Positions 1 to 24,500 of a stretch of 64,000 nt of DNA are shown here, piece by piece. The position numbers were made by a program, and so were the translations under genes. The notes under the pieces were generated by a model that ran no database searches, had not been told where the DNA came from, and saw only the letters and a program-made list of their open reading frames with translations. The stretch is from Eledone cirrhosa (taxonomy: Eukaryota). The stretch covers positions 117,490,001 through 117,554,000 of the forward strand of contig OZ024744.1 of NCBI GenBank assembly GCA_964016885.1, in the 5' to 3' direction. Each line of letters begins with the position of its first letter. Position 1 is the first letter of the stretch.

Positions 1-260
1 CCCCCTCTTCAACGGCCGTACTCTGGACCCTATCGTGTGCTTGCTCGCACAGACAAACATTTCACACTGGACATTCGGGGTTCCAGGGAAACGGTTTCCA
101 TTGATCGTCTCAAACGAGCAAACCTGGACAATGACACTTGAAACTCAAATGCCCCCCTCTTTTTCTTTGCCACACAGGCCTATTCCCCCCCCCCCCATTA
201 ACACACAGAACTACGACCTGTTCTGGGCGAACGGTGCATTGGCCCCGTAAGCTATGCAGT
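1..260 (+). mobile_element. 3' end of Ty3/Gypsy LTR-retrotransposon pol (integrase C-terminal GPY/F region), degraded
   Basis: Frame 1 from base 1 reads PPLQRPYSGPYRVLARTDKHFTLDIRGSRETVSIDRLKRA (stop at 139-141). A later frame gives RTTTCSGRTVHWPRKL, typical of Gypsy pol ends. Confidence 0.8.
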
Positions 261-723
261 AATATAAACTGAATTATTATTTTTTTTTTTTGTTTTGTTT
301 TTTTCCTTCCAATTGTTTTTGTTGTACATTGCATTTTGTTACTTTTGGATTCTTGACTGCCTACGGCAGTGTCAATATATTGTATTTTGCGTAACATTAC
401 GACTGTTGTCAATTCTGACACAGACCTTTTTTTTTAGTGCATTTTTATAACTATGCTACATATGGCATTTTCATTGCCTAGCAAAACATTTTTTTTCTTG
501 TTTATCGCATCTGGGGCCCCTTTATTGCGAAGAGTGTTATCTTTTCATGCATTTTGCATCTTTTACTGTACGTTTTTTTTTTTTTTTTTTCTGTGTTAAT
601 GCTTGCAGACATGAACCTATTTATTATTTCTTTTTAATTTGTTGATACATTCTTCTACATTTTGTAAACTACCTTCGCTTCATTGTTAACGATTTTTCGA
701 CAAAAAATCTGCTCCGAGGTGAA

Positions 724-987
724 TGTAGTGGCTGAGATGGTCGCTTGGCAACTAGCAGTTGCCTCCCCTTAACAACCCTTCAGGGAGCGGAGGCAAAAAT
801 ACACCCGGACACAGCCACAGGTTCACTCACTCTTTTTGGACCACGGACATGAACAGACGTGGAAAGATCCGCTCCTCAAAATATTGACGTTGTAGGAAAT
901 TTACTAAATTATTGCATTAAATAAAATGATTGTTAGACTTGATTGTGCATTTATTTATTCGACAAAGAGAAACATCCCTTTTCTTTA
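724..987 (+). mobile_element. possible 3' LTR of the Gypsy element
   Basis: Starts TGTAGT after a T-rich 3' UTR and contains AATAAA near 920. There is no partner LTR in the window and no clean CA end. Confidence 0.25.
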
Positions 988-1354
988 GAGGTATGTGGTG
1001 GCCTAGTGGTAACGATGTTAGACTGGGTTGTGTGTTGTGTTCTTGAACAAGACACTTCATTTCACATTACTACAGTATACTACTGTAGAGGTATATTGTG
1101 GCCTAGTGGTAAGGGTGTTAGACTGGGTTGTGTGTTGTGTTCTTGAACAAAACACTTCATTTCACATTACTACAGTATACTACATGGAGGTATGTGGGAC
1201 CTAATGGTAAGGGTGTTAGACTGGGTTGTGTGTTGTGTTCTTGAACTAAACACCTCATTTCACATTACTCCAGTATACTACAGTGGAGGTATGTGGTGGC
1301 CTAGTGGTAAGGGTGTTAGACTGAGTTGTGTGTTGTGTTCTTGAACAAAACACT
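988..1354 (+). repeat. tandem array (~3.7 x 99-100 bp) of an internally deleted tRNA-derived SINE
   Basis: Units start at 988, 1088, 1187 and 1286, each with a box A-like TGGCCTAGTGG and GTTCTTGAACAARACACTT. They match the more complete SINE at 46135-46281 (minus strand) but lack its anticodon/box B segment. Confidence 0.75.
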
Positions 1355-3420
1355 AGAGAGGGTGGTTAAGGAACCTGGCAAGGATGGGGCCATGATCAAC
1401 TTGGATCAATCCAAAGCATTCGATAGGGTCGACCATCGGTACCTGGCGGCGGTCCTCGGGGCAGCCGGTTTCGAGCCCGTTTTCAGGGGTTGGCTCGCAG
1501 CAATGTACAGCGACATCTGCTCAGTTGTGTGGGTGAACGGTCACCTGTCGCAGCCGTTCAGCATCATGCGCTCAGTCCGCCAGGGTTGTCCCCTCTCGTC
1601 CCTCTTGTACGTATTGGCTCTCGAGCCGTTACTGCACAAACTGGGGGCGATGAGGGGCGTCCCACGCGAACTAGGATGCGGGAAATCCGAGTCGGCTTAC
1701 GCCGACGACGTCACCGTAGTGGTGTCGAGCACCAGGCACGTCCAGATGCTCGGCACCGCTCTCAAGGAATACGAAGCGGTGACAGGAGCAAAGATAAACC
1801 AGGAAAAGTCGGTGGGCTTGCAGCTCGGCACCTGGAGAGGCAAGTCCATGCCGTCCGACAGCGTCGTGGGGTGTTGGACGGACGGACCGGTTAAATTGCT
1901 TGGGGTCTGGTTCGGAGAAAAACTGGAACGAGGTGACGAGCAGGGTGGCCTCCCTCACCCAGAAATGGGCTGAGAGGAAGCTGTCCCTGAAAGGCCGGAC
2001 GGAGGTGGCGAATGCGTACATCGCATCCATCATCTGCTACCGCCTCACCGTCGTCCCTTGCTCCGGCCCAACTCTCACCAAAATGGAGCGCCTCTTCTTC
2101 CGCTTTTTGTGGAAGGGACGCACTCCCATGGTCAGACGATCCATCTGCTGTCAACACCCGTTGCGTGGAGGACTGGACATGCCATGGCTGATGATGTGCA
2201 AACATGCGCTGAGGCTGCGACATCTCTAGTGCTTCCTTGATGGTGAACAAGTGTGGTCGCCGTTCGCCAGGCACGTTTTCCCACAGCTCGTCTCCTTGAC
2301 GGAGCTGCAGTCCTGGGTCAGAAAAAGACCGGGGGATAGCGCTTGGAAACTGGAATGTCTCCAGGCGCTCACTGCCCTCTCCCAGTTGGGCACCAGTATC
2401 GGTGGAACATCCACCTCGGCGTTCTATAGAGGACTAGTGGAGGGGAAGAGCGACGACATTCTCGGAGAGATCCTGGGCGTCAAAGAAGATCAACTACTTG
2501 CTCTCTTCCGGAGAACTTTCAGCCCGGGGCCTATGGATAACTTCCAAAAATCCTTGGCCTGGCAGTGCTACCGGGGAGCGCTGCCGGTTCGAGATAAGCT
2601 CTACTGGCACGGAAGTGCCGTCAACCGAGCCTGTCCGAGATGTGCGCAGAGCGACGAAACCGTCGTGCACGCACTCGTTCAGTGCCCGAGCATTGCTGAC
2701 TTGTGGAGCTATGTCGAACAGTTGCTGTCGCGTGTGGGACTGATCCGGTTATCGACTGAGTCCATTGTGCAGATGGTCTCGCCGTCTTCCTTCGAGGAAG
2801 AAGGGCAGGTTGTTTTCATCTGCCTGGTGGCCATGGCGAAAGAGATTGTGTGGTGGACAAGGTTGAAAGACAGACACTTTCCTCTTTGGCGAATCCCTAA
2901 TTAAATTTTTCAAGTTTCACTTGTAGACGAAAATCAGGGTGGAGAGGCAAGTGCTGCTTTCTAGCAAGTTTGTTGAAAGGTGGGTGAATGTAGCGAGAAT
3001 GGTCCGAGTGAACGGGACCACTCTGAATATACGTCTGTAGTTTGAGAGATGGAAAAATTGAGAGAGGGCGCTTGCCCTGGTGGTCAGGGTGGTCGTGGTC
3101 TTTTGTGTGGTTTTCGCTACGAATAACCCTATGAGGTTTCCCCCCTATTGGGGAATTTTTCATTGATTCAATTTTCATTTTATATTGTTTATATATATAT
3201 ATGTTTCTATGTCCTTTTTTTCTTCTTTTCTTATATAAATAATAATGCATGTAAATACTTTAAATACAAATATAAATTTGTGCATGTAAATACTTTTCTT
3301 ATATAAATAATAAAAATATTTACATGCACAAAACCCACATCGTACCGTCCTGTACCATCCTGTGCCGTCTGTAATGTTTTTCTTGATGTCAGCCCTTGTG
3401 GCCAATAAAGAAATCATTAT
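1355..3420 (+). mobile_element. Tx1/L1-clade LINE, subfamily B, 5'-truncated inside RT, frameshifted
   Basis: LDQSKAFDRV, RQGCPLS, AYADD and CPRC..H...C motifs. Near-identical to 13215-15252. The 3' UTR ends AATAAAGAAATC-ATTAT. Confidence 0.93.
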
Positions 3421-3911
3421 GTCTGGTGGCCATGGCGAAAGAGATAGTATGGTGGACACGTTTGAAAGGGCTGAAGACGAGCACTTACCTCTTCGGTGAT
3501 ACCCTGATTAACTTTTTCAAATTTCATCTGAAAAGGAGAATCAGGGTAGAGAGGGAAGTGCTCTCTTCCCAGCATTTTGTTGAAAGATGGGTGAGAGAAG
3601 CAAGTATGGCCCGAATGAATGGGCCTTCTCTGAGTATGTGTCTGTAAATTAAAGGTGGAAAACTGGGAGAGGGCGCTTGCCCTGGTGGTCAGGGCCACTG
3701 TGGTCTTTTAATGGGCTTTCTCCACAAATGTCCCTCGGAAGTCTCCCCCCTTTTGGGGAATTTTTCTGTGTTATTTTATTTCATCCTCTGTTTTTTTACA
3801 CGCAGAAATGCCCATTTGTACCGTCCTGTATTGTCCTGTACTGTCCTTAATGTCTACTTTATGTAAACCCTTGTGGTTAATAAAGAAAACATTATTATTA
3901 TTATTATTATT
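3421..3911 (+). mobile_element. Tx1 LINE subfamily A, short 5'-truncated copy
   Basis: Near-identical to 9443-9967 (ORF2 C-terminus plus 3' UTR) and ends in (ATT)7. Confidence 0.92.
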
Positions 3912-4231
3912 GAATGCCATGGTTGACGGAGGCTCGGCTCTGTAAGGTATAGTAATTTTTAACCGTTAAAACAATTGTAAATTGTTTAAAACTTGAACCA
4001 AATTGTTGATAAAGACACCCTCCTCCTCGTGAGAGGGGTCTTTCTGTCCGTTATTTGGCCCTTCGGGGTTAAATAACCAGTTATTGGGGTTTTGTACCCA
4101 AAATTTCATTTTAAACAAAAAAACATGGCTACGAAAAAGAAATTTCATACGTCACTCCCACTCATTCCGTCTTCTTCTTCCTCAATCATCACTACAGCAG
4201 AGAGAAGATTGTCTCTCTCCCTTCTTTAAAT

Positions 4232-6214
4232 GTGTCTCTCTCCCTCCCTTCTCTTTCGCAAGTGACGAAAGAAAAGAAAAGTCTCGTGCAAAGCGTGCAA
4301 GGTTTCTCCACGACGACGACAGCGACGAAACAGGTGTGCGGGAAATACGAAAACCCAGTTCATTCGTCTGACGTCAGGAATAATAGCAGTAGCAGCCGTA
4401 ATAACAACAGCAACAGTGACAATGAAAACAACAGTAGCAGCCGCAACAGCATCACCAGCAGCATAAACAACAACAGCATTAGCAGCAGCAACACCAACAA
4501 CAACCACAGCAACAGCGGCGGAGGCAGTAGTCGTAGTACCTGCAGCAACAACAAAAGTACCAGCAGCTCTGACGACAACAACAACAGCAGAGAAAAACCA
4601 ATCTCATTTGCAGGTATTGCGAAAAACCTGGAAACAATCCTCATAACAAATGAGGAATTAGAGGAAGCGAAGAAGATGGTGACAAAGAACGGACACCGAG
4701 CAATCTGCAAGGCAGCGGAAAAATTTTTCGAAACCCAAGAGCACTGTACGGTCACGTACCGTACAGTAAGTACAAAATCCCGTAGGGTGGAAAGAGCCAC
4801 AGAGGCCCAAATACAAAAAGCCTTGGGGTCTGTGTGGCAGCGGAAAACGCACATCACCCGAGGCAAAAAATATGCCACCGTAGACGTACTTTTTGCCACA
4901 CCCCAGGAGGCAAAGGCCCAATCAGTAGTGACCCTAAGGAGCGAGGAAATGGTGTTGGTGCCCTCCTACTGCGGGCAAAAAATTGTGAGGGTCAAACTGA
5001 CACACGTCCCCCCCGGAATGACCCCTTCTTGGCTGGCCGCGTCTGTCCTCGTCGGAATCGAGGACAAAACAACTGTACTGCAAGTACAGAAAAAAGTAAG
5101 AGAAGATTGGGTCGGCTCCTCCATTGAGATGCTAATCCAAACCAACCAGGAGTGCATCGAAGCTATCCCGGATGTGATAGACTTCGATAACGGCACTCAA
5201 CTGCCCATAAGTGTTGAGGGCAAACGCCCGAAATGCTTTCGCTGTGGATCGAAGACTCACCTCAGGGCCTTCTGCAACGAGAAGACCCTGAGAAAGGAGA
5301 AAACCCCCCTCCTTCCGAATCCGGCTCCACGGCTACCAGCAACAGGACAAGCGGCAACCAGGAACGATAGGTCCGTGGCACCCATACCCACTCCACGGAA
5401 ATCAAAAACAGCAGCAGCAGTGGAAATATTAACAACAACAACAGCAATACCAAATGCAGCTGCAACAGAGACTCCAGTGCAAACATCACCAACAACAACA
5501 AGTGAAAGAGTGGAGCTGGTACCCCTCCCCGACCTCACAGAATCAGACATGGAGTGTGAGGTGGGAGAGGGATGGCAAAAGGTCGCAAGAAGGCACAAAC
5601 GCAGAAGCAGCGCATCGTCGCCTTTGAAAAGGGAGGAAAGAAATGAGAAAAGGGTAAAGTCTACTGCAAAGAGACCCACAGCAGCAACACCACCAACACC
5701 ATCACCACCCACACCAGCACCACCATCAGCACCGGCGACAACCCCACCGCCAACAACACCTTCAACACCACCACCACAAGCACCAACATCGCAAACACAA
5801 CAACAAAACACACACACCCAGCAACAACGACAAGAAAATAGTAGAACCACACCCCACCCCCAGAAAAACAAATGCACGGCAATAAATACACACAACAAGA
5901 AACTAATGACTTACATAATTGAACACACAGACATTTCACAACAGGACTACATAATACCAGCACCAATCAAAACGCCAACTAACATAAGACTGCTAAAAAT
6001 AGCACAGAAACAATACACAAATATTAAAACGAAATTCCCCAACGCAGTTGGTGATTTCAGGGACCTAGGAGGAACCATCAATCGAAGAGTATACTCAGAC
6101 ATTCTCTTAGAAGAGCCGACGACCAGCCGAAGGGACGATTCAACGGTCCCTTCACCAGACGATCAAGTGAAAAGGGATGTAAAAACCATCCCTCCTCTAC
6201 CAAAAGTACGGTAA
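4232..6214 (+). CDS. Tx1 ORF1p (gag-like nucleic-acid-binding protein, CCHC zinc knuckle)
   Basis: CFRCGSKTHLRAFC = CX2CX4HX4C. Asn/Ser-rich N-terminus and Pro/Thr-rich C-terminus. The frame is open from 4115, but the likely start ATG (4125) is in another frame, so the start is uncertain or frameshifted. Confidence 0.85.
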   Translation: MSLSLPSLSQVTKEKKSLVQSVQGFSTTTTATKQVCGKYENPVHSSDVRNNSSSSRNNNSNSDNENNSSSRNSITSSINNNSISSSNTNNNHSNSGGGSSRSTCSNNKSTSSSDDNNNSREKPISFAGIAKNLETILITNEELEEAKKMVTKNGHRAICKAAEKFFETQEHCTVTYRTVSTKSRRVERATEAQIQKALGSVWQRKTHITRGKKYATVDVLFATPQEAKAQSVVTLRSEEMVLVPSYCGQKIVRVKLTHVPPGMTPSWLAASVLVGIEDKTTVLQVQKKVREDWVGSSIEMLIQTNQECIEAIPDVIDFDNGTQLPISVEGKRPKCFRCGSKTHLRAFCNEKTLRKEKTPLLPNPAPRLPATGQAATRNDRSVAPIPTPRKSKTAAAVEILTTTTAIPNAAATETPVQTSPTTTSERVELVPLPDLTESDMECEVGEGWQKVARRHKRRSSASSPLKREERNEKRVKSTAKRPTAATPPTPSPPTPAPPSAPATTPPPTTPSTPPPQAPTSQTQQQNTHTQQQRQENSRTTPHPQKNKCTAINTHNKKLMTYIIEHTDISQQDYIIPAPIKTPTNIRLLKIAQKQYTNIKTKFPNAVGDFRDLGGTINRRVYSDILLEEPTTSRRDDSTVPSPDDQVKRDVKTIPPLPKVR

Positions 6215-6249
6215 GTGGTCTTTCCCATCTTTTCCACTCTATTTTAAAT

Positions 6250-9200
6250 ATGACCTCACTCAGAATAGGCAGCATAAATGCGCGTGGCTTGGGGTCGTCA
6301 TGGAAGCAGGGTCACCTGCTCAACGACCTCAGGTCACTAAACATAGATGTAGTGGCCATCAGCGAGACCAGAATCTCCGAAGCACGGGCCTTCGCACCGA
6401 TCTTCGGCGGCTACGATGTGTACGCATCTCCCAGCCGTCCTGGATCCGGTGGAGGAGTTGCTGTACTTTTTCGGAGAGGTTTGGATCTCGCCATACGGGC
6501 CATCTTCCTGGACCCAGAGGGTAAGCTGGTGGTGCTGGACGTGACCAGCGGAGACGGGCAAGCTTTCAGGCTAGTGGCCGTCTATGCCCCGACAGGAGCA
6601 GGGCGGCCTGATTTCTTCCGGCGTCTGGAGACCTTTCTTGGAACGTCGCGCTCTTTAGTGTTAGTGGGCGACTGGAACGGGATCTTAGATGCACGCTGGG
6701 ACTGTGTGGGATTAGCGGATAGGGGTGGAGGGTGCAAGAGCCTCACCAACCTGCTCAGGCGTTTTGAACTGTCTGACAGGTACCGATTGGATTTCCCGAA
6801 TGTGCCAATGTGGACTTGGACAAACCGCATAGGGTCATCCAGATCATATCTAGATAGAGTATTTTGTAGGGAAATAGATAGGTCTAGCATAGGCTGTCCA
6901 CAATTCAAGATAGTCAGCTACACGGACCACAAATTCGTGATCTGTGTGCTTGACTTAGATAGGCTTCATAGACGAGGACCCGGCTACTGGAAGCTAAACG
7001 CGTCCTTACCAGCGCGCAAGGCCTACAGAGACCGGATTAGCGAACTAGTTAAGCGGGCGTTGACGGGGGCCATCGTCAACAACAAGTGGTGGTTTGCTCT
7101 GAAAAGAGCGATTAGAATAGAATCGATTAGATTTAGTAAGGCTTTAGCAATAGAGAAAAATAGAGCAGAGGGAGAACTAGTTAGAAAATTAGACGAGGCG
7201 CTTAGCAAAGGCATTGCGACCGACGTGCTTGCGGCGAAATTGGCCCTTGACCAATTCTTCAATGCAAAGCACGAAGGCTGCGTTGTCAGAGCAAGGGTGC
7301 GTGCTCTCAGACACGAGGGGACGAAAGCCGTTCAATGGGCCCGAGTGGCGGAGGCGCGTCGTGGCAACAAAGCCACGATCCGGTCTTTGGTGGACCACGA
7401 CGGGCGCATGCTACTCGATCCCGGGCAAATGTGTGAAGCTTTTCAGCGACACTTCGCTCAGCTGTTCGGGGGCAGCGGCGGGCCGGGTAGAGGGATGGAC
7501 TTTAGTGTCTACCTCGATGGACTGCCGCGGCTCTCGGCCACTGAGGCGAAGTGTTGCGAAAAGCCGATAACAGCCGCTGAAGTAAGGGAGGCAATGACTG
7601 GCTGCACAAGGGGTAAATCGCCTGGTTTGGATGGTCTGCCCTATGAACTTTACGTACAGATGCCAGACTTGTTCGGAGGCCTCTTGGCGGACGTCTACTG
7701 CAACTGGCAACAGAACGGGAGAATTCCCAGTTCTGTGAGCCGAGGAGCGGTGGCACTGCTGAGAAAGGATCCGAACAAGGGGGATAACATAGAAAATTTC
7801 CGGCCCATAACTCTGCTAAACACAGAGTTTAAGATTTTGGCCAAGGTGCTAGCAAAGAGGCTGGCGCTTGTCGTTGGTGGTCTGGTGGGAGAGGCGCAGA
7901 CATGCGCCATTCCCGACAGATCCATCCACGACAACCTCCACCTCATGCGATACATCGTAGAGAGGGTAGCTAGGGAACCTGGCACGGGTGGGTCCTTGAT
8001 CAATTTAGATCAGTCGAAAGCTTTCGATAGGGTCGACCATCGTTACCTAGCGGCAGTCCTGAGGGCGGCTGGCTTTGGGCCCGTCTTCAGAGGCTGGATC
8101 GCTGCCATGCACAGCGACATCTGCTCTGTGGTGAGAGTGAACGGTCACCTGTCGGAACCGTTCAACATCATGCGCTCGGTCCGCCAAGGATGTCCCCTCT
8201 CGTCCCTCTTGTACGTATTGACTCTCGAGCCATTACTGCACAAACTGGAGACGTTGAGGGGGGTCCCGCGCGAACTAGGATGCGGAAGATCCGTATCAGC
8301 ATATGCGGACGATGTCACCGTAGTGGTGTCGAACGCCAAACACATCGAGGCGATCGGCACTACACTAAGAGAATACGAAGCGGTGACAGGAGCAATGATC
8401 AACCAGGAAAAGTCAGTGGGCCTGCAGCTCGGCACATGGAGAGGCAGGTCCATGCCGTCCAACAGCGTCGTCGGACGCTGGACGGACGGACCGGTTAAAT
8501 TGCTAGGGGTCTGGTTCGGTCCGGACCTCCAGACGGACAAAAACTGGGACGAGGTGACGAGCAGGGTGGCTTCTCTCACCCAGAAATGGGCCGAGAGGAA
8601 GCTATCCCTGAAAGGTCGAGCGGAGGTGGCTAACGCGTACATCGCGTCCGTCATCTGCTACCGCCTGACCGTCGTACCTTGTCCTAAGCCTCGCCTGACT
8701 GTGCTGGAGCGTTTGCTCTTTCGCTTTTTGTGGAAGGGACGCGCTCCGATGGTCAGGCGGTCCATCTGTTGTCAACACCCGCTACGTGGAGGGCTGGGCA
8801 TGCCGTGGCTGATGATGCGCAGGCACGCGCTCAGGCTACGACATCTCCACCTCTTCCTCGACGGTGATCAGGTGTGGTCGCCGTTTGCTAGACGCGTGTT
8901 TCCCCAGCTCGTTTCCTTGACGGAGCTGCAGTCCTGGGTCAAGCGAAGACCGAGAGGGAGCGCCTGGAGACTGGAATGTCTTCAGGCGCTCACAGCCCTC
9001 GACCAATCGGGCAATGTGATCGGTGGAAACTCCACCTCGGCGTTCTATAGAGGATTAGTGGAGGGGAAGAGCGACGACGTACTTGGGGAAACTCTAGGCG
9101 TCGACGAAAATCAACTAGCCAATCTCTTCGGAAGAACTTTCGGGCCAGGGCCTATGGACAACTTCCAGAAATCTCTGGCCTGGCAGTGCTACCGAGGAGC

Positions 9201-9669
9201 CTTGCCAGTTCGGGATAAACTCTACAGGCATGGAGGTGCCGTCAGCCGGGCATGTCCGAGATGCGCGCAGGGCGACGAAACCGTCCTGCACGCACTCGTC
9301 CAGTGTCCGAAAATTGCTGACTTGTGGGTTTATGTCGAACACCTGCTGTCGCGTTTAGGACGGATCCGGCTATCATCTGAGTCCATCGTGATGATTACCC
9401 CGCCCTCCTCCTTTAGCCGGGAAGGGCAGGCAGTTTTTATCTGCCTGGTGGCCATGGCGAAAGAGATAGTATGGTGGACACGTTTGAAAGGGCTGAAGAC
9501 GAGCACTTACCTCTTCGGTGATGCTCTGATTGACTTTTTCAAATTTCATTTGAAAAGGAAAATCAGAGTAGAGAGGGAAGTGCTCTCTTCCCAGCATTTT
9601 GTTGAAAGATGGGTGAGAGAAGCAAGAATGGCCCGAGTGAATGGGCCTACTCTGAGCATATATCTGTAA
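6250..9669 (+). CDS. Tx1 ORF2p: APE endonuclease + reverse transcriptase + C-terminal CCHC zinc finger
   Basis: 1139 aa without interruption. APE motifs SINARGL, ISET, VYAP, GDWN, YLDR, TDH. RT motifs KSPGLDG, FRPITLL, KAFDRV, RQGCPLS, YADD. C-terminal CPRC...H...C. Confidence 0.97.
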   Translation: MTSLRIGSINARGLGSSWKQGHLLNDLRSLNIDVVAISETRISEARAFAPIFGGYDVYASPSRPGSGGGVAVLFRRGLDLAIRAIFLDPEGKLVVLDVTSGDGQAFRLVAVYAPTGAGRPDFFRRLETFLGTSRSLVLVGDWNGILDARWDCVGLADRGGGCKSLTNLLRRFELSDRYRLDFPNVPMWTWTNRIGSSRSYLDRVFCREIDRSSIGCPQFKIVSYTDHKFVICVLDLDRLHRRGPGYWKLNASLPARKAYRDRISELVKRALTGAIVNNKWWFALKRAIRIESIRFSKALAIEKNRAEGELVRKLDEALSKGIATDVLAAKLALDQFFNAKHEGCVVRARVRALRHEGTKAVQWARVAEARRGNKATIRSLVDHDGRMLLDPGQMCEAFQRHFAQLFGGSGGPGRGMDFSVYLDGLPRLSATEAKCCEKPITAAEVREAMTGCTRGKSPGLDGLPYELYVQMPDLFGGLLADVYCNWQQNGRIPSSVSRGAVALLRKDPNKGDNIENFRPITLLNTEFKILAKVLAKRLALVVGGLVGEAQTCAIPDRSIHDNLHLMRYIVERVAREPGTGGSLINLDQSKAFDRVDHRYLAAVLRAAGFGPVFRGWIAAMHSDICSVVRVNGHLSEPFNIMRSVRQGCPLSSLLYVLTLEPLLHKLETLRGVPRELGCGRSVSAYADDVTVVVSNAKHIEAIGTTLREYEAVTGAMINQEKSVGLQLGTWRGRSMPSNSVVGRWTDGPVKLLGVWFGPDLQTDKNWDEVTSRVASLTQKWAERKLSLKGRAEVANAYIASVICYRLTVVPCPKPRLTVLERLLFRFLWKGRAPMVRRSICCQHPLRGGLGMPWLMMRRHALRLRHLHLFLDGDQVWSPFARRVFPQLVSLTELQSWVKRRPRGSAWRLECLQALTALDQSGNVIGGNSTSAFYRGLVEGKSDDVLGETLGVDENQLANLFGRTFGPGPMDNFQKSLAWQCYRGALPVRDKLYRHGGAVSRACPRCAQGDETVLHALVQCPKIADLWVYVEHLLSRLGRIRLSSESIVMITPPSSFSREGQAVFICLVAMAKEIVWWTRLKGLKTSTYLFGDALIDFFKFHLKRKIRVEREVLSSQHFVERWVREARMARVNGPTLSIYL

Positions 9670-9917
9670 ATTAAAGGTGGAAAACTGGGAGAGGGCACTT
9701 GCCTTGGTGGTCAGGGTCATTGTGGCTTTTTACTGGGCTTTCTCCACAAATGTCCCTCCGAAGTCTCCCCCCTATTGGGGAATTTTTCATTGTTATTTTT
9801 TGTTACATCCTCTGTTTTTGTTTTTTACACGCAGAAATGCCCATTTGTACCGTCCTGCATTGTCCTGCACTGTCCTTAATGTCTACTTTATGTAAACCCT
9901 TGTGGTTAATAAAGAAA

Positions 9918-9968
<51 letters not shown>

Positions 9969-10113: not shown

Positions 10114-13100
10114 CGGGTGGAGAGAGCCACGGAGGCTCAAATCCCAAAGGCCTTGGGGTGCGTCTGGGCACGCAAAACCCACATCACCCGAGACAAAAAT
10201 TACTCCACAGTAGACATACTTTTCGCCACCCCCAAAGAAGCGAAGTCTCACTCTTTGGAAACACTAAAGAGTGAGGAGATAGTCTTGGTGCCCTCCTACT
10301 GCCGGCAGAAATTTGTGAGGGTCAAAGTGACCCAGGTCCCACCCGACGTGCCCATACCTTGGCTGGCCGCGTCTATCCTTGCTGGAATCGAGGACAGGAC
10401 GACCATGCTGCAAGTAGAGAAAATAGGGAGAGAGAACTGGTCAGGTATAGGCATGCAAATGCTTATACAAACTGACCAGGAATGTATCGACGCTATCCCC
10501 GATATCATAGACATCGAGGAAGGACTCCAACTCCTTATAAGTGTAGAAGAAAGACGGCCAAAATATTATCTCTGTGGGTCAAAGGGTCATCTCAGGGCCT
10601 TTTGCCCGCAGAAGACAGCGAAGAAGAAGGCCTCTCTCCTTCCAATACCTGGTCCGCTGCTACCAAGAGCAGGGCAGGCAACAAATGCAGAAGCCCCTTC
10701 CACGGTGAGTAGGAGGGCAACGTCTGTGGCACCCATACCAAGGCCACGGACAACTAAAGCAGCAGCATCAGTGGCGGCAACAGCTACATTTGCAGTAGCT
10801 GCACCAGCAACAAAATTGCCGGAGAGGGCTCCACTACCACCACCAACAGCGGTGGAGCACATACCCCTCCCAGACGCCACGGAATCCGACATGGAGTTTG
10901 AGGCGGGAGTGAAGTGGCAAACGCTCTGCCACAAAAAAAAAAAAAAAAAAAAAAAACCCCTTAGCTTCGCCCCACAAAAGCGAAGGCACACAAAGATGGG
11001 TAAAGGCAGCAAGGAAACTTGCAGCAACACCACCACCATCACCATCACCACCACAAGCACCACCGCCAACAACAACCACACCACCACTAGCATCACCAAA
11101 AACACCAACAACGCAAACACAACAAAATACACACACCAAACAGCAAGAAGAAGAAAACAGCAACAAAATCACCCCTCCCCCAAAAAAGTACACAGCCATA
11201 AACATGGCAAAAAAAAGAACTCAAACAATATATAAAGCAGCACACAGACATTACAGAAAAAAACTACTACACCCCACCAACACCAAGAACTCTCCCGACA
11301 AACATAAGCATCATTGAAATCTTAATAGAAGAGTACAAACCTTTAAAACAAAAATTCCCCAACGCAGTTGGAGACTTCAGACGGTCGGTTACCAAGAGGA
11401 TATACACTGACATCCTCTTGGAACCACCCATGACCAGCCAAAGGGACGGTTCTACTGTCCCTTCACCACACGATCAAGGTAAGTGACCCTTTCTCACTTG
11501 CCCCGTTTCTCATCCAACATGGCCGTACTCAGAATAGGCTGTATAAATGCACGTGGCCTGGGGTCATCTTGGAAGCAGGGTCACCTGCTCAACGACCTTA
11601 GGTCACTAAACATAGATGTGGTGGTCATCGGTGAGACCAGAATCTCCGAAGCACGAGCCATCGCACCGATCTTCGGCAGCTACGATGTATACGCATCTCC
11701 CAGCCGTCCAGGATCGGGAGAGGGGTTGCCGTCCTTTTTCGGAGAGGGTTGGATCTAGCCATACGGGCCATCTTCCTAGACCCAGAAGGTAAGTCGGTGG
11801 TGCTGGACGTGACCGGCAGCGAAGGCAATGCTTTCAGGCTAGTAGCTGTCTACGCTCCAACAGGGCAGCACGGCCAGATTTCTTCAGACGTCTAGAGACC
11901 TTTCTTGGAACGTCCCGTCTTTAGTGTTAGTGGGCGACTGGAACGGTATCTTGGATGCACGCTGGGATTGTGTGGTGCTAGTGGATAGGGGAGGAGGGTG
12001 CAAGAGCCTCACCAACCTGCTCAGACGTTTTGAACTGTCTGACAGGTATCGACTGGATCACCCGAATGTGCCAATGTGGACATAGACAAACCGCATCGGG
12101 TCATCCAGATCGTATCTCGATAGGGTATTCTGCAGAGAACTAGATAAGGCTAGTATAAGTTGTCCATTTAATATAGTCGACTACACAGACCACAAATGTG
12201 TGATCTGTGAGATCGACATAGACAGACTTCATAGACAAGGGCCCGGTTACTGGAAGCTGAACGCGTCTTTCCCGGCGCACAAAGCCTACAGAGACCGTAT
12301 TAGCGTATCAGTTAAGCGGGCGTTGACGGGAGCGGTCGTCAACAACAGGTGGTGGTTCGCCCTGAAAAGGGCAATTAAAGTAGAGTCGATTAGGTTGAGC
12401 AAAGGAGTAGTGATAGAGGAAAATAGAGTAGAGGGAGAGCTAGTAAGAAAGCTAGAAGAGGTGTTTAGGACAGGCATCGCAACCGGCGTGCTTGCGGAGA
12501 GATTGGCACTCGACCAATTCTTCAACGCAAAACACAAAGGCTGCGTTGTCAGAGCTAGAGCGCGTGCTCTGAAACACGAGGGGACAAAAGCCGTCCAATG
12601 GGCCCGAGTGGCACGACGTGGAAACAAAGCCACAATTCGGTCTTTGTCTGACCAAAACGGGTGCGGGATGCTCGAACCCGAGCGGATGTGTGAAGCTTTT
12701 CAGCAGCACTTTGCTGAACTGTTCGGGAGCAGCGGCGGCCCGGATCGGGGCATGGACTTCAGTACATACCTCGACGGACTACCTCGGATCTTGACGACCG
12801 CAGCACAGTGTTGCGAAAATCCAATAACAGCCGGTGAAATACGAGAAGCGATGGCTAACTGCACAAGGGGTAAATCGCCAGGTTTGGATGGTCTGCCCTA
12901 CGAGCTTTATGCATTTATGCCAGACTTGTTCGGTGACCTCTTGGCAGACGTCTACTGCAACTGGCAGCAGAACGGGAGCATTCCCAGTTTTGTGAGCCGG
13001 GGAGCGGTGACGCTGCTGAAAAAAGACCTGAACAAGGGGGATGTTATCGATATTTTCAGGCCCATAACTCTACTGAACGCAAAGTTCAAGATTTTGGCCA

Positions 13101-15537: not shown

Positions 15538-18500
15538 CACGACCACAACAACAACAACTCAGAGCAATAACGACAATAACACCAATAACAACAGCAAGAA
15601 TGACAACACCAACAATAAGAGCATCAGAAACACCACATTTGCTGCAGCAGCAGCAAAAACAAAGCGCTTATTGAATATTGATATTGATATTAGCGATAAA
15701 GACGAACAGTTGGCCCAGGCATGGAGGCTAATTAAACGGGAGAAGTACTGGGCAAACCTGACCATCCCGGACGAGGCAATAGCAGCCATGCAAAGAAGGA
15801 CGGTGTTCTTTCGATGCATTTCGATGCAGACACGAAAAGTGGAACTTGCCAACCAAGCAGGGGTCGAGGCTGCTTTGGAGTACATCGGAAGTAACATAGA
15901 GTACAAAGCAAGAGGCAAACAGTTCGGTACTATCTCGGTACTGTTCAAAACCGAGGCCCTCGCTATTAAGCACCCGGTGACCCCCTGCAGAACGCATTAT
16001 CATGCATCCGTCTTACATGGGTAAAAGGACAGTAAAGTCCGCATTCCCAGCATCCCACTAGGAATGAACATATCGTGGCTGCTGGGATGCGTAATCGAGG
16101 AGGGGACAGACACTACCCTCCTGGATATCAAAAGGACAGAGAGAGAAGACTGGTCCGGAATGGATTTGGAGATTCTTCTCCAAATGAAGCCGGAGGACAT
16201 GAACAACATCCCGGATTTTGCCCGTCTGCAGGACGGGACAACAAACCAACTAATCATTGACGGAAGAAGGCCACGCTGCTTCGCCTGCGGGGAAGCAACG
16301 CATCTGCAAGCCTTCTGCCCTCAGCGCAAAAATGCAGGGGGTCGCAAACCTTCTTTGTTCCCAACGCCAGTGTCAGCACGGAAAGCTGCACCACCACCAC
16401 CAGCAAAAACAACACCAACAAAGACACGGACACCAATATTAAAAACAGCCAACACCAAAACCAATCCAAGGGGAAAAAGATGAAAGCTCCCCCCCTCCCC
16501 ATTATACACATAGACAAAACAATAAACGCACACACAGACACAGAGACACTCACAGCCATAGACCCTTTGTCTTCCAGCAGCGAAGATGAAAGAAAACCCA
16601 AAAGTGCAATAAAACAGAGAAAACTCACAAAAAAAAAAAAAGCCCCAACAAAACTCAAAAACATACACAACAAAAAATACAGACACACTAACGCAAACAC
16701 TTCCCCAATAACATCAGCACCAACATCAACATCGACACCACCTCCACAATCCCCGAAACGCAAACAACCTAAACAAACACAAGTACAAATAAACACACAA
16801 ATACCTGAAATTGCAGACACCACACCTACAAAAAACACAGACATACCTGAAACAACACAGACATACACAGGCATACCTGAAACAACACAGACATACACAG
16901 ACATACCCGAAACAACACAGACATACACAGACATACCCGAAACAACACAGACATACCCGAAACAACACAGACATACCCGAAACAACACAGACATACACAG
17001 ACATACCCGAAACAACACAGACATACACAGACATACCTGAAACAACACAGACATACACAGACATACCCGAAACAACACAGACATACACAGACATACCCGA
17101 AACAACACAGACATACACAGACATACCCGAAACAACACAGACATACACAGACATACCCGAAACAACACAGACATACACAGACATACCCGAAACAACACAG
17201 ACATACACAGACATACCCGAAACAACACAGACATACACAGCCATACCCGAAACAACACACAACACAGACATACACAGACATACCCGAAACAACACAGACA
17301 TACACAGCCATACCGGAAACAACACACAACACAGACATACACAGACATACCCGAAACAACACAGACATACACAGACATACCCGAAACAACACAGACATAC
17401 CCGAAACAACACAGACATACACAGACATACCTGAAACAACACAGACATACACAGACATACCCGAAACAACACAGACATACACAGACATACCCGAAACAAC
17501 ACAGACATATACAGACATACCCGAAACAACACAGACATACACAGATATACCCGAAACAACACAGACATACACAGACATACCCGAAACAACACAGACATAC
17601 ACAGAATTACCCGAAACAACACAGACATACACAGACATACCCGAAACAACACATACATACACAGACATACCCGAAACAACACAGACATACACAGACATAC
17701 CTGAAACAACACAGACATACACAGACATACCTGAAACAACACAGACATACACAGACATACCCGAAACAACACATACATACACAGACATACCCGAAACAAC
17801 ACAGACATACACAGACATACCTGAAACAACACAGACATACACAGACATACCTGAAACAACACAGACATACACAGACATACCCCAAACAACACAGACATAC
17901 ACAGGCATACCCGAAACAACACAGACATACACAGACATACCTGAAACAACACAGACATACACAGACATACCCGAAACAACACAGACATACACAGACATAC
18001 CCGAAACAACACAGACATACACAGACATACCCGAAACAACACAGACATACACAGACATACCCGAAACAACACAGACATACACAGACATACCCGAAACAAC
18101 ACAGACATACACAGACATACCCGAAACAACACAGACATACACAGACATACCCGAAACAACACAGACATACACAGACATACCCGAAACAACACAGACATAC
18201 ACAGACATACCCGAAACAACACAGACATACACAGACATACCCGAAACAACACAGACATACACAGCCATACCCGAAACAACACACAACACAGACATACACA
18301 GACATACCCGAAACAACACAGACATACACAGACATACCCGAAACAACACAGACATACACAGACATACCCGAAACAACACAGACATACACAGACATACCCG
18401 AAACAACACAGACATACACAGACATACCCGAAACAACACAGACATACACAGCCATACCCGAAACAACACACAACACAGACATACACAGACATACCCGAAA

Positions 18501-21500
18501 CAACACAGACATACACAGACATACCCGAAACAACACAGACATACACAGACATACCCGAAACAACACAGACATACACAGAATTACCCGAAACAACACAGAC
18601 ATACACAGACATACCCGAAACAACACAGACATACACAGACATACCTGAAACAACACAGACATACACAGACATACCCGAAACAACACAGACATACACAGAC
18701 ATACCCGAAACAACACAGACATACACAGGCATACCCAAAACAACACAGACATACACAGATATACCCGAAACAACACAGACATACACAGACATACCCGAAA
18801 CAACACAGACATACACAGACATACCCGAAACAACACAGACATACACAGACATACCCGAAACAACACAGACATACACAGACATACCCGAAACAACACAGAC
18901 ATACACAGACATATCTGAAACAACACAGACATACACAGACATACCTGAAACAACACAGACATACACAGACATACCCGAAACAACACAGACATACACAGGC
19001 ATACCCGAAACAACACAGACATACACAGACATACCCGAAACAACACAGACATACACAGACATACCTGAAACAACACAGACATACACAGACATACCCGAAA
19101 CAACACAGACATACACAGACATACCCGAAACAACACAGACATACACAGACATACCCGAAACAACACAGACATACACAGCCATACCCGAAACAACACACAA
19201 CACAGACATACACAGACATACCCGAAACAACACAGACATACACAGACATACCCGAAACAACACAGACATACACAGACATACCCGAAACAACACAGACATA
19301 CACAGGCATACCCGAAACAACACAGACATACACAGACATACCCGAAACAACACAGACATACACAGACATACCTGAAACAACACAGACATACACAGACATA
19401 CCCGAAACAACACAGACATACACAGACATACCCGAAACAACACAGACATACACAGACATACCCGAAACAACACAGACATACACAGCCATACCCGAAACAA
19501 CACACAACACAGACATACACAGACATACCCGAAACAACACAGACATACACAGACATACCCGAAACAACACAGACATACACAGACATACCTGAAACAACAC
19601 AGACATACACAGACATACCCGAAACAACACAGACATACACAGACATACCCGAAACAACACAGACATACACAGACATACCCGAAACAACACAGACATACAC
19701 AGACATACCCGAAACAACACAGACATACACAGAATTACCCGAAACAACACAGACATACACAGACATACCCGAAACAACACAGACATACACAGACATACCT
19801 GAAACAACACAGACATACACAGACATACCCGAAACAACACAGACATACACAGACATACCCGAAACAACACAGACATACACAGGCATACCCAAAACAACAC
19901 AGACATACACAGACATACCCGAAACAACACAGACATACACAGACATACCCGAAACAACACAGACATACACAGACATACCCGAAACAACACAGACATACAC
20001 AGACATACCCGAAACAACACAGACATACACAGAATTACCCGAAACAACACAGACATACACAGACATACCCGAAACAACACATACATACACAGACATACCC
20101 GAAACAACACAGACATACACAGACATACCTGAAACAACACAGACATACACAGACATACCTGAAACAACACAGACATACACAGACATACCCGAAACAACAC
20201 AGACATACACAGGCATACCCGAAACAACACAGACATACACAGACATACCTGAAACAACACAGACATACACAGACATACCCGAAACAACACAGACATACAC
20301 AGACATACCCGAAACAACACAGACATACACAGACATACCCGAAACAACACAGACATACACAGACATACCCGAAACAACACAGACATACACAGACATACCC
20401 GAAACAACACAGACATACACAGACATACCCGAAACAACACAGACATACACAGACATACCCGAAACAACACAGACATACACAGCCATACCCGAAACAACAC
20501 AGAACACAGACATACACAGACATACCCGAAACAACACAGACATACACAGACATACCCGAAACAACACAGACATACACAGACATACCTGAAACAACACAGA
20601 CATACACAGACATACCCGAAACAACACAGACATACACAGACATACCCGAAACAACACAGACATACACAGACATACCCGAAACAACACAGACATACACAGA
20701 CATACCCGAAACAACAGAGACATACACAGACATACCCGAAACAACACAGACATACACAGACATACACAGACATACCCGAAACAACACAGACATACACAGG
20801 CATACCCAAAACAACACAGACATACACAGATATACCCGAAACAACACAGACATACACAGACATACCCGAAACAACACAGACATACACAGACATACCCGAA
20901 ACAACACAGACATACACAGACATACCCGAAACAACACAGACATACACAGACATACCCGAAACAACAGAGACATACACAGACATACCCGAAACAACACAGA
21001 CATACACAGAATTACCCGAAACAACACAGACATACACAGACATACCCGAAACAACACAGACATACACAGACATACCTGAAACAACACAGACATACACAGA
21101 CATACCCGAAACAACACAGACATACACAGACATACCCGAAACAACACAGACATACACAGGCATACCCAAAACAACACAGACATACACAGATATACCCGAA
21201 ACAACACAGACATACACAGACATACCCGAAACAACACAGACATACACAGACATACCCGAAACAACACAGACATACACAGACATACCCGAAACAACACAGA
21301 CATACACAGACATACCCGAAACAACACAGACATACACAGACATATCTGAAACAACACAGACATACACAGACATACCTGAAACAACACAGACATACACAGA
21401 CATACCCGAAACAACACAGACATACACAGGCATACCCGAAACAACACAGACATACACAGACATACCCGAAACAACACAGACATACACAGACATACCTGAA

Positions 21501-24500
21501 ACAACACAGACATACACAGACATACCCGAAACAACACAGACATACCCGAAACAACACAGACATACACAGACATACCTGAAACAACACAGACATACACAGA
21601 CATACCCGAAACAACACAGACATACACAGACATACCCGAAACAACACAGACATACACAGACATACCCGAAACAACACAGACATACACAGACATACCCGAA
21701 ACAACACAGACATACACAGACATACCCAAAACAACACAGACATACACAGGCATACCCGAAACAACACAGACATACACAGACATACCCGAAACAACACAGA
21801 CATACACAGACATACCAGAAACAACACAGACATACACAGACATACCCGAAACAACACAGACATACACAGGCATACCCGAAACAACACAGACATACACAGA
21901 CATACCCGAAACAACACAGACATACACAGACATACCCGAAACAACACAGAAATACACAGACATACCCGAAACAACACAGACATACACAGGCATACCCGAA
22001 ACAACACAGACATACACAGACATACCCGAAACAACACAGACATACACAGCCATACCGGAAACAACACACAACACAGACATACACAGACATACCCGAAACA
22101 ACACAGACATACACAGACATACCCGAAACAACACAGACATACACAGACATACCTGAAACAACACAGACATACACAGACATACCCGAAACAACACAGACAT
22201 ACACAGACATACCCGAAACAACACAGACATACACAGACATACCCGAAACAACACAGACATACACAGACATACCCGAAACAACACAGACATACACAGACAT
22301 ACCCGAAACAACACAGACATACACAGACATACCCGAAACAACACAGACATACACAGACATACCTGAAACAACACAGACATACACAGACATACCTGAAACA
22401 ACACAGACATACACAGACATACCCGAAACAACACAGACATACACAGGCATACCCGAAACAACACAGACATACACAGACATACCCGAAACAACACAGACAT
22501 ACACAGGCATACCCGAAACAACACAGACATACACAGACATACCCGAAACAACACAGACATACCAGAAACAACACAGACATACACAGACATACCCGAAACA
22601 ACACAGACATACACAGGCATACCCGAAACAACACAGACATACACAGACATACCCGAAACAACACAGACATACACAGACATACCCGAAACAACACAGAAAT
22701 ACACAGACATACCCGAAACAACACAGACATACACAGGCATACCCGAAACAACACAGACATTCACAGACATACCCGAAACAACACAGACATACACAGCCAT
22801 ACCCGAAACAACACACAACACAGACATACACAGACATACCCGAAACAACACAGACATACACAGACATACCCGAAACAACACAGACATACACAGACATACC
22901 CGAAACAACACAGACATACACAGACATACCCGAAACAACACAGACATACACAGAATTACCCGAAACAACACAGACATACACAGACATACCCGAAACAACA
23001 CAGACATACACAGACATACCTGAAACAATACAGACATACACAGACATACCCGAAACAACACAGACATACACAGACATACCCGAAACAACACAGACATACA
23101 CAGGCATACCCAAAACAACACAGACATACACAGACATACCCGAAACAACACAGACATACACAGACATACCCGAAACAACACAGACATACACAGACATACC
23201 CGAAACAACACAGACATACACAGACATACCCGAAACAACACAGACATACACAGACATACCCGAAACAAAACAGACATACACAGACATACCTGAAACAACA
23301 CAGACATACACAGACATACCTGAAACAACACAGACATACACAGACATACCCGAAACAACACAGACATACTCAGGCATACCCGAAACAACACAGACATACA
23401 CAGACATACCCGAAACAACACAGACATACACAGACATACCTGAAACAACACAGACATACACAGACATACCTGAAACAACACAGACATACCCGAAACAACA
23501 CAGACATACACAGACATACCTGAAACAACACAGACATACACAGACATACCCGAAACAACACAGACATACACAGACATACCCGAAACAACACAGACATACA
23601 CAGACATACCCGAAACAACACAGACATACACAGACATACCCAAAACAACACAGACATACACAGACATACCAGAAACAACACAGACATACACAGACATACC
23701 CGAAACAACACAGACATACACAGGCATACCCGAAACAACACAGACATACACAGACATACCCGAAACAACACAGACATACACAGACATACCCGAAACAACA
23801 CAGAAATACACAGACATACCCGAAACAACACAGACATACACAGGCATACCCGAAACAACACAGACATACACAGGCATACTCGAAACAACACAGACATACA
23901 CAGACATACCCGAAACAACACCACCAAAACCATCACCACCACAGTCACCAAAACGAAAACAAATAAAACCACACCAACAAAATGTTAAAAACTTCGTGCT
24001 TGTCAGAAGGGCCAACGATAAACTGATGGCCCTCTTAGCACGAAGCGAGGACATTCAAACAGAGGGGGAGATTTTTGAAATGAGCACATTTTGCGTGCCA
24101 GAAGATTTGCTTCTGGTCCGAATGTCACCCAATTCCTTCAAAGAAATTCGAGAGAGCTTTCCTCAAGACGTGGGAACCCCGAATGTGAAACCCACATCGA
24201 GACTTTTAAAGGGGTTCCCAAAAGAAACCCCACCAACCAAGGAGGTCGAACCACCCGACCTTCACAAGACCCCGGGAGGTAAGTAAACTTTCCCTCTCTC
24301 TCTTAGCTTACCAACATGGCCATATTAAGAGTAGGAAGTTTAAATGTTCGCGGCCTGGGGGTCACCCTGGAAGCAGGGTCGCCTGCTCAACGACCTCAGG
24401 TCGCTGGAAATGGATGTGATTGCCGTCAGCGAGACCTGAATTTCCGACACGCGCGTAGTAGCCCCCATTTTCGACGACTATCAGATCTTCGGATCTGTTA

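Follow-up and report, generated by a model that had tools for sequence, protein, structure and literature searches.

The Ogre elements of legumes (Ty3/gypsy) carry an intron between their ORFs, and its removal joins them. Unpaired splice donors are known from retroviruses, as in the negative regulator of splicing of RSV and in the major donor of HIV-1, which silences the poly(A) site of the 5' LTR. A second ORF can also be reached by stop and restart, for which the ORF2 of human L1, the UAAUG of SART1 and the TURBS of caliciviruses are examples; L1-type ORF2 is made by termination-reinitiation. Moreover, L1 is known for its cis preference.

In Arabidopsis, the Ty1/Copia element EVD has a conserved U1 site behind GAG, which is reported to allow an RNA with GAG alone to form and to keep the full-length RNA from terminating prematurely; a dual role of U1, in splicing and in preventing early termination, is proposed there (PMC5580714). 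Spliced mRNAs of human L1 leave spliced genomic copies, the SpIREs (PMC5860796). An unspliced mRNA that carries a consensus 5' splice-site motif is reported to be retained in the nucleus and to decay in human cells (PMC4380460).

Here, we analysed a stretch of 64,000 nucleotides of Eledone cirrhosa (contig OZ024744.1), hereafter the window, whose first letter is position 1. It contains four head-to-tail L1-like LINEs (A, B, C and D), each with GGTAAGT on the stop codon of ORF1. No description of a donor on a LINE ORF1 stop was found in the result listings of a full-text literature search.

Like EVD, whose full-length template RNA stays unspliced (PMC5580714), these elements have a donor similar to the canonical U1 site at the end of the structural-protein gene. 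In EVD, which is an LTR element, GAG and POL share one frame and the GAG stop arises by splicing (PMC5580714), whereas the Eledone element is a two-ORF LINE, analysed here as DNA, with the stop within the motif itself. The short spliced RNA of EVD is not a template according to that account (PMC5580714), which would fit the absence of spliced copies of the Eledone LINE. Human L1 shares membership of the L1 superfamily, functional-looking donors in its mRNA and genomic copies that record splicing; its donors, placed in the 5'UTR and in ORF1, are considered harmful, and spliced copies derived from them exist (PMC5860796). The Eledone donor, in contrast, occupies the ORF1 stop and is shared by deep lineages, with 0 spliced copies against 3864 that keep the spacer.

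Ogre embodies the idea of splicing that joins two retroelement ORFs, as a fusion intron at the Eledone junction would do. However, Ogre belongs to the LTR elements and has its unspliced RNA packaged in trans, whereas a fused LINE mRNA should itself be copied, and no such copy occurs in the Eledone genome. In the retroviral cases, too, donor-bound U1 regulates the processing of an RNA that is kept unspliced as the genome; these have true downstream acceptors and mapped U1 binding, whereas the Eledone U1 site is predicted from sequence. The stop-restart systems are similar in that one RNA carries two ORFs, a structured element precedes the stop and a short distance separates the stop from the restart ATG. 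The Eledone junction differs from them by the lack of an 18S complement, a gap of 29-35 nt instead of an overlap, and conserved bases that are those of the donor consensus.

A head-to-tail array of L1-like LINEs

The layout of the family is illustrated by element A:

4232-6214, + strand: ORF1 open frame of 660 codons with CCHC knuckle CFRCGSKTHLRAFC; TAA stop inside the motif
6250-9669, + strand: ORF2, 1139 aa, with endonuclease, reverse transcriptase and zf-RVT; ATG 39 nt past the GT
9908-9967, + strand: 3' end, AATAAA followed by an (ATT)16 tail adjoining element B

The ORF2 of element A contains the Pfam domains Exo_endo_phos (3e-14), RVT_1 (1e-28) and zf-RVT (7e-8), and its closest solved protein is human LINE-1 ORF2p (E 1.5e-52, residues 5-854). 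No Pfam family was matched by its ORF1 at E<=0.01. The set of ORF2 domains (endonuclease, reverse transcriptase and C-terminal zinc-binding) is that of L1-superfamily LINEs, but the 3' ends consist of AATAAA...(ATT)n and lack the poly(A) tail of that superfamily; the elements are L1-like with a microsatellite tail.

Three deep lineages are represented (D, B and C), and the A/D lineages are the most numerous. The ORF1 of A is 68% identical to that of B at the nucleotide level and mostly unalignable with those of C and D. A and C' share 73% of nucleotides, 69% of amino acids and 50% of 149 fourfold sites; judged from such alignments, neutral divergence between lineages is near saturation. Half of 28 sampled copies have an open 5' ORF2, and the family therefore looks young. 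A fifth element, 5'-truncated and B-like (92.6%), occupies positions 1-3400 without the junction.

A donor-like motif on the ORF1 stop codon

The motif and the ORF1 stop are arranged as follows:

6210-6216, + strand: element A GGTAAGT; ORF1 stop TAA at 6212-6214; complementary to nt 3-9 of U1 snRNA
11478-11486, + strand: element B GGTAAGT (11478-11484) and ORF1 stop TGA (11484-11486), read GGT AAG TGA; ORF2 ATG at 11519
24278-24286, + strand: element C GGTAAGT (24278-24284) and ORF1 stop TAA (24284-24286), read GGT AAG TAA; ORF2 ATG at 24316
29415-29421, + strand: element D GGTAAGT; ORF1 stop TAA at 29417-29419; ORF2 ATG at 29454

An earlier sequence-only reading had placed a donor at the ORF1 stop of all four subfamilies, and GGTAAGT is indeed present at 6210, 11478, 24278 and 29415; the positions given in that reading (6211, 11479, 24279 and 29416) are the first bases (GT) of the would-be intron. 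The difference in phase that it described also holds, A/D being read as CGG/AGG TAA and B/C as GGT AAG TGA/TAA, and we agree that the motif is conserved as nucleotides rather than codons, as it is kept across this frame change. Because the stop uses different bases in A/D and B/C, most positions of the motif are unconstrained in at least one group, yet they are invariant.

When the four copies are aligned, no invariant run in the ~160 columns that precede ORF2 is longer than GGTAAGT; CTTTC, with 5 columns, comes second. The longer form AGGTAAGT is identical at 8/8 positions across lineages D, B, C and C', and its flanks are ~50% identical between lineages (7-8 of 15-16 positions in the 15-16-nt linker before it, 16-22 of 31-33 in the spacer after it). 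This conservation rests on three deep lineages, all in one genome, for which the chance of an invariant 8-mer is roughly estimated at ~1e-2 to 1e-3. Among 30 genomic copies found by an ORF2 anchor and sampled in genome order, 29 have the motif at the junction, and the remaining copy has a ~45-nt deletion. A metagenome scan for relatives in other organisms gave 291 pattern matches, of which 0 were confirmed.

What is unusual is the homologous position of GGTAAGT and not its number in the window: the 14 matches there show no excess over an expectation of 10.3 +/- 3.2, a count of 14 being reached in 13 of 100 shuffles. A second GGTAAGT lies ~309 nt downstream, at 11788, 24586 and 29724 (GGTAAGC in copy A). 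We rejected it as a further U1 site, since the codons GGT AAG TTG (G-K-L in DPEGKLVVLDV) account for it.

Architecture of the junction

The motif is preceded by a hairpin and followed by a spacer:

6132-6150, + strand: element A, first (B-related) copy of the tail hairpin, GGGAC/GTCCC
6174-6192, + strand: element A, conserved coding hairpin GGGATG/CATCCC, 18 nt upstream of the G|GT boundary
11443-11461, + strand: element B hairpin GGGACGG/CTGTCCC
24243-24261, + strand: element C hairpin AGGTCG/CGACCT
29379-29397, + strand: element D hairpin AGGATGG/CCATCCT
6215-6249, + strand: element A spacer, 35 nt, 74% pyrimidine, containing CTTTCCC and neither ATG nor AG

The 7-bp stem of the hairpin covaries through compensatory changes; conservation between lineages does not extend to its loops. 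Spacing is held more closely to the motif (17-18 nt from hairpin to GT, 37-40 nt from GT to ATG) than to the stop codon (19-22 nt from hairpin to stop, 29-35 nt from stop to ATG). The context of the ORF2 ATG, CAAC ATG G/A, is conserved as well. Local folds around the motif range from -11.7 kcal/mol (z -3.5) in B, through -7 to -10.5 in C-type copies, to -5 to -7 in A/D; as they differ between lineages, a shared RNA fold holding the motif was rejected.

Compared with a TURBS-like element, in which an 18S-complementary motif is carried on a stem, the junction has a covarying stem, unconserved loops and no 18S complement: the host 18S rRNA (2868 nt) contains no ACTTACC, CTTACC or ACTTAC, and only two G-U-containing 8-mers. 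Pairing of the motif to 18S rRNA was thus rejected for want of a Watson-Crick complement. Frameshifting or readthrough into ORF2 was likewise discarded, given that the relative frames vary by lineage and that, in B, C and D, no open ORF2 frame extends upstream.

Match to the host U1 snRNA

The 5' end of the host U1 snRNA begins ATACTTACCTGG. Pairing of AGGTAAGT with it involves 8 bases in B and D and 9 in C, and that of the A form (CGGTAAGT) involves 7. The motif thus has the complementarity to the U1 5' end expected of a 5' splice site and, by sequence, forms a conserved U1-complementary site at the end of the structural ORF, of the EVD type.

We propose, with a rough probability of 0.45, that GGTAAGT on the ORF1 stop is a selected candidate U1-binding 5' splice-site element that stays unspliced in the copied RNA and acts co-transcriptionally. 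Pairing of U1 snRNP with 8 nt of the nascent RNA (9 in lineage C) would direct the fate of the transcript during its synthesis. As at the EVD donor, where U1 reportedly has both roles, its binding may keep the long bicistronic transcript from ending early, and a minor spliced isoform could arise that is not copied back. Translation of ORF2 would still begin at its own ATG, on RNA that has not been spliced. The second option of the sequence-only reading had been a regulatory site bound by U1 snRNP; as the motif matches the 5' end of the host U1 perfectly, a predicted site of this kind remains the reading that we prefer, ahead of the fusion intron.

This U1-docking reading is supported by a motif kept in two phases, the U1 match, the motif-anchored spacing and the lack of intron-less copies. 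Against it, there are few poly(A) hexamers to suppress: AATAAA/ATTAAA occurs 187-488 nt upstream in A, C and D, not upstream in B, and almost nowhere in ORF2. In element B, moreover, a stable local hairpin (-11.7 kcal/mol, z -3.5) can sequester the motif. An unused donor should also cost the element something, since such motifs are reported to cause nuclear retention and decay in human cells (PMC4380460).

A putative fusion intron and other explanations

The segment whose removal would join the two ORFs in element A is the following:

6211-6263, + strand: putative 53-nt intron (GT...CAG), in frame if removed; no genomic copy lacks it

A real spliceosomal intron of 52-59 nt containing the ORF1 stop and the ORF2 ATG would, once removed, fuse ORF1 to ORF2 in a gag-pol-like manner and so control ORF2. 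Several features fit such an intron. The donor is perfect, the ORF1 stop always lies within the segment, and our recount agrees with the lengths first put forward (53, 52, 59 and 56 nt) and with their in-frame arithmetic. The spacers are indeed pyrimidine-rich (74-81%) and followed by AGs 52-59 nt from the GT, of which the first (CAG) is in frame in A/D, the most numerous lineages. The genomic copies do not bear it out. Copies precisely lacking the segment were sought in A/D across the genome with two anchors, counted as spacer kept when 45-75 nt apart and as spacer lost when 0-30 nt apart: 0 copies had lost it and 3864 had kept it. With the copies that have the exon end and the motif in B (322) and C (1000) added, loss of the supposed intron is seen in 0 of about 5,200 genomic copies counted, so that the retrocopies without an intron by which splicing of a retroelement is recognised were not seen. 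The fusion-encoding RNA should be the one copied, given the cis preference of L1. In A/D, B and C alike, joining of the exon end to another acceptor was seen in no copy; among the 99 copies with a non-G at +1 (50 in A/D, 18 in B, 31 in C), 98 keep the native spacer with local changes, and the remaining one has an internal deletion that is not at an AG.

The acceptors give this intron no clear support either. The in-frame one differs by lineage, being the CAG in A/D and a later, weaker-placed TAG in B/C, where the first usable AG yields a stop (GAA TAG or GAG TAG). As AGs cover two of the three phases within 13 nt, chance alone would supply one in frame in two of three cases. A 1-nt indel has shifted the phase between lineages, a change that should not be tolerated if fusion were required, and no branch-point-like motif common to the lineages was found in the junction spacers. 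Host introns appear longer: in two V-ATPase a-subunit genes, the 15 gaps that separate consecutive exon matches have canonical GT...AG ends and measure from 524 nt to ~26 kb, a small sample beside which a short-intron class is possible. Contigs from four runs (X1, X4, X5 and X6) were placed on positions 5200-7200 and judged to be DNA by depth and contig numbers. Two of them, one per run (X4, 2370 nt; X5, 1412 nt), cross the element A site unspliced, which for runs taken as DNA adds little to the assembly; the 6210^6264 joint is absent among the 15 joints listed (of 34) for the contigs of these runs. We consider a fusion intron very improbable. Splicing over a long range to the 3'UTR was rejected too, because a good acceptor (pyrimidine tract and CAG) exists only in A/D, with CAC in B/C, and no copy has the exon end joined to distal sequence.

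The likeness to a donor might instead be incidental to a stop-restart module made of the hairpin, stops in two frames (TAAGTRA), a pyrimidine-rich spacer and an ATG in good context. The motif lies on the stop codon in every lineage, the compensated hairpin would sit just behind the terminating ribosome, the spacer is free of ATG, the ATG context is conserved, and termination-reinitiation is the usual route to an L1-type ORF2. Yet spacing is held to the motif rather than the stop, the hairpin loops and the local folds of the spacer vary between lineages, the 18S rRNA offers no complement, and we know of no restart signal with the sequence of the motif; such a module therefore seems unlikely. 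Still more doubtful is that the 7-8 bases have no function and are an inherited remnant riding with the ORF1 stop, donor-like by chance. This would agree with the small number of deep lineages (three), the constraint on TAA or TRA as a stop, the ordinary count of GGTAAGT in the whole window and the second GGTAAGT explained by codons alone. It does not account for the invariance of positions that are free in A/D or B/C, next to flanks that are ~50% identical and fourfold sites at 50%, nor for the AG at -2/-1 that is also kept in B, C and D.

Significance and the possible origin of lineage A

The balance of ORF1 and ORF2 output, and the protection of a long intron-less transcript, are poorly known in non-mammalian LINEs. 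Since human cells retain donor-bearing unspliced mRNA in the nucleus, a donor kept on the ORF1 stop by an abundant family through deep splits is unexpected. If U1 binding is used, control through U1, as described for Ty1/Copia elements of plants, would apply to LINEs too. With its hairpin, donor, pyrimidine spacer and ATG, the junction would fit into a reporter.

Lineage A is a chimera with its breakpoint exactly at the donor, its ORF1 tail being joined exactly at AAG| to the sequence that follows CAG| in lineage D. If U1 binding is used, this chimera would become a candidate for spliceosomal shuffling of LINE modules inside tandem arrays. A joint reading, quite improbable as a whole, would combine a working donor on the ORF1 stop with a mostly unspliced template RNA, a minor fusion form in A/D and a past splice that created lineage A. 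The unspliced RNA would be the majority and the only template, making ORF1p and a separately started ORF2p, and the minor spliced form would read ORF1 straight into ORF2 in A/D. Lineage A itself would stem from a past splice from the donor into the neighbouring element of the head-to-tail array.

The LINE array

Five LINEs lie head to tail on the + strand and fill positions 1-32880 of the window, in a genome of 3.0 Gb. At the 3' end of each, AATAAA precedes an (ATT)n tail, which adjoins the next element. Four of them, A to D, are L1-like and give their names to the lineages treated here; human LINE-1 ORF2p is the closest solved relative of the ORF2 of element A (E 1.5e-52).

LINEs of the window and reading frames of element A
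1-3400, + strand: 5'-truncated element, B-like (92.6%)
~3430-9967, + strand: element A
4232-6214, + strand: ORF1 open frame of element A, including a CCHC knuckle
6250-9669, + strand: ORF2 of element A, with endonuclease, reverse transcriptase and zf-RVT domains
to ~15245, + strand: element B, a relative of A
to 27273, + strand: element C, a relative of A
to 32879, + strand: element D, a relative of A

The head-to-tail order suggests insertion into the (ATT)n tails of older copies, or array amplification. Genome-wide, LINE copies are often 5.9-6.9 kb apart on one strand, e.g., at C1 55.43-55.45 Mb and in many other places. The ORF2 of A shares 96% nucleotide identity with D, 83% with B and 73-77% with C; its ORF1 is 68% identical to that of B, while C and D are barely alignable. 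Compared with a C-type copy, A shows 69% amino-acid identity; over 149 fourfold sites the identity is 50%, a value near saturation.

A donor motif conserved at the ORF1 stop

A sequence-only reading had placed a splice donor motif, GGTAAGT, on all four ORF1 stops, and we located it there, at 6210, 11478, 24278 and 29415. In an alignment of the four copies, every other invariant run before ORF2 is shorter. Since the window contains 14 GGTAAGT against 10.3 expected, without over-representation, its position and not its number is the notable feature. The ORF1 tails of A-D are homologous (FPxxxGDFR...RIYxDIL...RDGSTVPSP-like), and the two reading phases described earlier were also recovered: A and D end in (C/A)GG TAA, B and C in GGT AAG TGA/TAA, owing to a 1-nt length difference in the upstream linker of 17-18 nt. 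A second GGTAAGT, in ORF2, was considered as a further signal and rejected, as it encodes G-K-L within an endonuclease strand that is conserved.

Among the three deep junction lineages (D, B and C), AGGTAAGT is identical at 8/8 positions, compared with 7-8/15-16 in the linker and 16-22/31-33 in the spacer between motif and ORF2 ATG. As a rough estimate, such an invariant 8-mer would arise by chance at some place in the 60-nt junction stretch with a probability of 1e-2 to 1e-3. Distances taken from the motif (17-18 nt from an upstream hairpin to GT, 37-40 nt from GT to ATG) are tighter than those taken from the stop codon (19-22 nt and 29-35 nt, respectively). The host U1 snRNA starts with ATACTTACCTGG, so that the motif is complementary to it over 7 (A), 8 (B and D) or 9 (C) bases. 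U1 snRNA genes are arrayed in tandem, one every ~2674 nt (C2:180973544-180995099; contig C1128).

The hairpin, of 7 bp, sits 17-18 nt upstream of GT, within the ORF1 tail. It was aligned over 23 rows, namely 19 loci representing 40 distinct locus sequences and the four window rows, with four C rows moved one column to codon register. Pairing holds in 150/161 cells. At three of the seven pairs both partners have changed (G-C/A-T, A-T/T-A and T-A/C-G, with G-U intermediates), although the encoded residues differ as a result. As these reflect few independent events in four lineages, the covariation is suggestive and does not amount to statistical support.

Genomic copies carry no trace of donor use

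An ORF2 29-mer common to all four lineages has 5317 genomic matches (control, 0). Among the first 30 copies along the genome, GGTAAGT stands at the homologous place in 29, the remaining one having a ~45-nt deletion. All 526 fetched ORF2 codons are open in 14 of the 28 sampled copies with a recognisable start, indicating a young family. On window 5200-7200, run X4 (labelled as another organism, B) gave the LINE at 99% identity, at a depth of 6-10 and in two contigs only, versus >11,000 contigs for the organism A run; in X4 the LINE could have few copies, or DNA could have been carried over.

The same early reading proposed that an intron of ~55 nt, from the motif to an AG inside ORF2 (53, 59, 56 and 52 nt in A to D), might fuse ORF1 to ORF2, and it named intron-less genomic copies as a check. 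Coordinates, lengths and frame arithmetic were all correct on recount. L1-encoded protein has a cis preference for its own RNA, so a spliced RNA from which a fusion was translated should itself be copied, and progeny elements would then lack the intron. We searched A/D copies for gaps of 0-30 and 45-75 nt between exon-end motif and ORF2 anchor, the predicted spliced forms having gaps of 0-9 nt: 3864 copies have 45-75 nt and none, genome-wide, has 0-30 nt. Exon end and motif are intact in 322 copies of B and 1000 of C. A base other than G follows the exon end in at least 50 copies of A/D, 18 of B and 31 of C, floor values because the last loose letter of the pattern loses about a quarter. All 99 such rows inspected were accounted for: 98 are point changes or small deletions inside the native spacer, and the odd one (C1:76079360-76079423, at 76.08 Mb) has a deletion reaching into ORF2, the end of which is not at an AG, a few extra bases linking the ORF1 exon end to ORF2 ~230 nt further on. 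Thus, no copy in this census records use of the donor with a near or far acceptor. This differs from human L1, whose spliced mRNAs left spliced copies in the genome (PMC5860796).

In A and D the first AG is indeed in frame for a fusion; however, the AGs behind the ORF2 ATG (CAG, TAG and CAG within 13 nt) cover two of three phases, and finding one in frame therefore carries no weight. Splicing to the first usable AG of B and C would run straight into a stop codon, the in-frame acceptor being the TAG after it; the lineages have no branch-like motif in common, and the phase change between them would break a required fusion. Moreover, 52-59 nt would be out of line with host introns in a small sample, 15 gaps between successive exon matches of two V-ATPase genes (524 nt to ~26 kb, their ends being ordinary GT...AG). 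The data do not support the intron interpretation, and a spliceosomal fusing intron appears highly improbable.

Lineage A as a chimera

Lineage A is a chimera of B-related and D-type sequence. Of its two hairpin-plus-linker units, the upstream one is related to B and the downstream one is of D type (6132-6216 vs 11443-11484 and 29379-29421). ORF1 and the first unit are B-related up to ...GATCAAG, the bases directly before GTAAGT in B, and the sequence is D-type from TGAAAAGG on, which in D comes after CAG. The joint thus lies exactly at the donor's exon end and after an AG of D-type sequence. Such a joint would be expected if, in a transcript reading through an array, the donor of one element had been spliced to the element after it. 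The would-be acceptor, however, lacks a pyrimidine tract, and template switching at the AG common to both would produce an identical joint; we consider the splice origin possible, at about one in three. Downstream of the joint, copies intermediate between A and D exist.

A candidate U1-binding site

Unpaired donors are known in retroviruses. By analogy with these and with EVD, an Arabidopsis Ty1/Copia element, the explanation we favour, and consider plausible, is a U1-binding site, as the sequence-only reading had offered as an alternative. It would be a selected U1-type donor, unspliced in template RNA, at which U1 snRNP may bind and steer the nascent bicistronic RNA. In EVD, U1 has two effects at the donor behind GAG: a GAG-only RNA can be made, and the full-length RNA is kept from terminating too early (PMC5580714). 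The LINE resembles it in the donor motif on the ORF1 stop. The U1 reading sits uneasily with the nuclear retention of unspliced mRNAs that donor-like motifs cause in human cells (PMC4380460). Poly(A) hexamers open to U1 silencing are few: in A, C and D they lie 187-488 nt upstream, and B has none upstream.

That the motif forms a stop-restart module is unlikely: calicivirus-type restart signals pair with 18S rRNA, whereas the motif has no complement in the 2868-nt host 18S. A motif without function is a decidedly doubtful reading. Long-range splicing to the 3'UTR was rejected, a good acceptor being present there only in A/D, as was frameshift or readthrough into ORF2, since frames differ and the upstream ORF2 frame is closed in B, C and D. 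Nor did a common RNA fold emerge around the motif, local folds not being alike between lineages. The host 18S rRNA gene (L061, C25:22125279-22128146) is 2868 nt long, compared with 1831 positions in the model, indicating large expansion segments.

Other repeats and frames in the window

Element C contains a 30-bp unit repeated ~235 times (16835-23921, 93% matches), which is read in the frame of the ORF1 tail and gives a 10-residue repeat (TQTYTDIPET...). At this place A, B and D hold short proline/threonine-rich low-complexity runs, and the repeat seems to be an ORF1 linker that underwent runaway expansion. The truncated B-like element carries a 100-bp unit 3.7 times (988-1354, 91% matches). 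An open frame on the minus strand, at 60066-60689, encodes part of a reverse transcriptase and, after it, a PHD-like zinc finger; it comes from a different retroelement.
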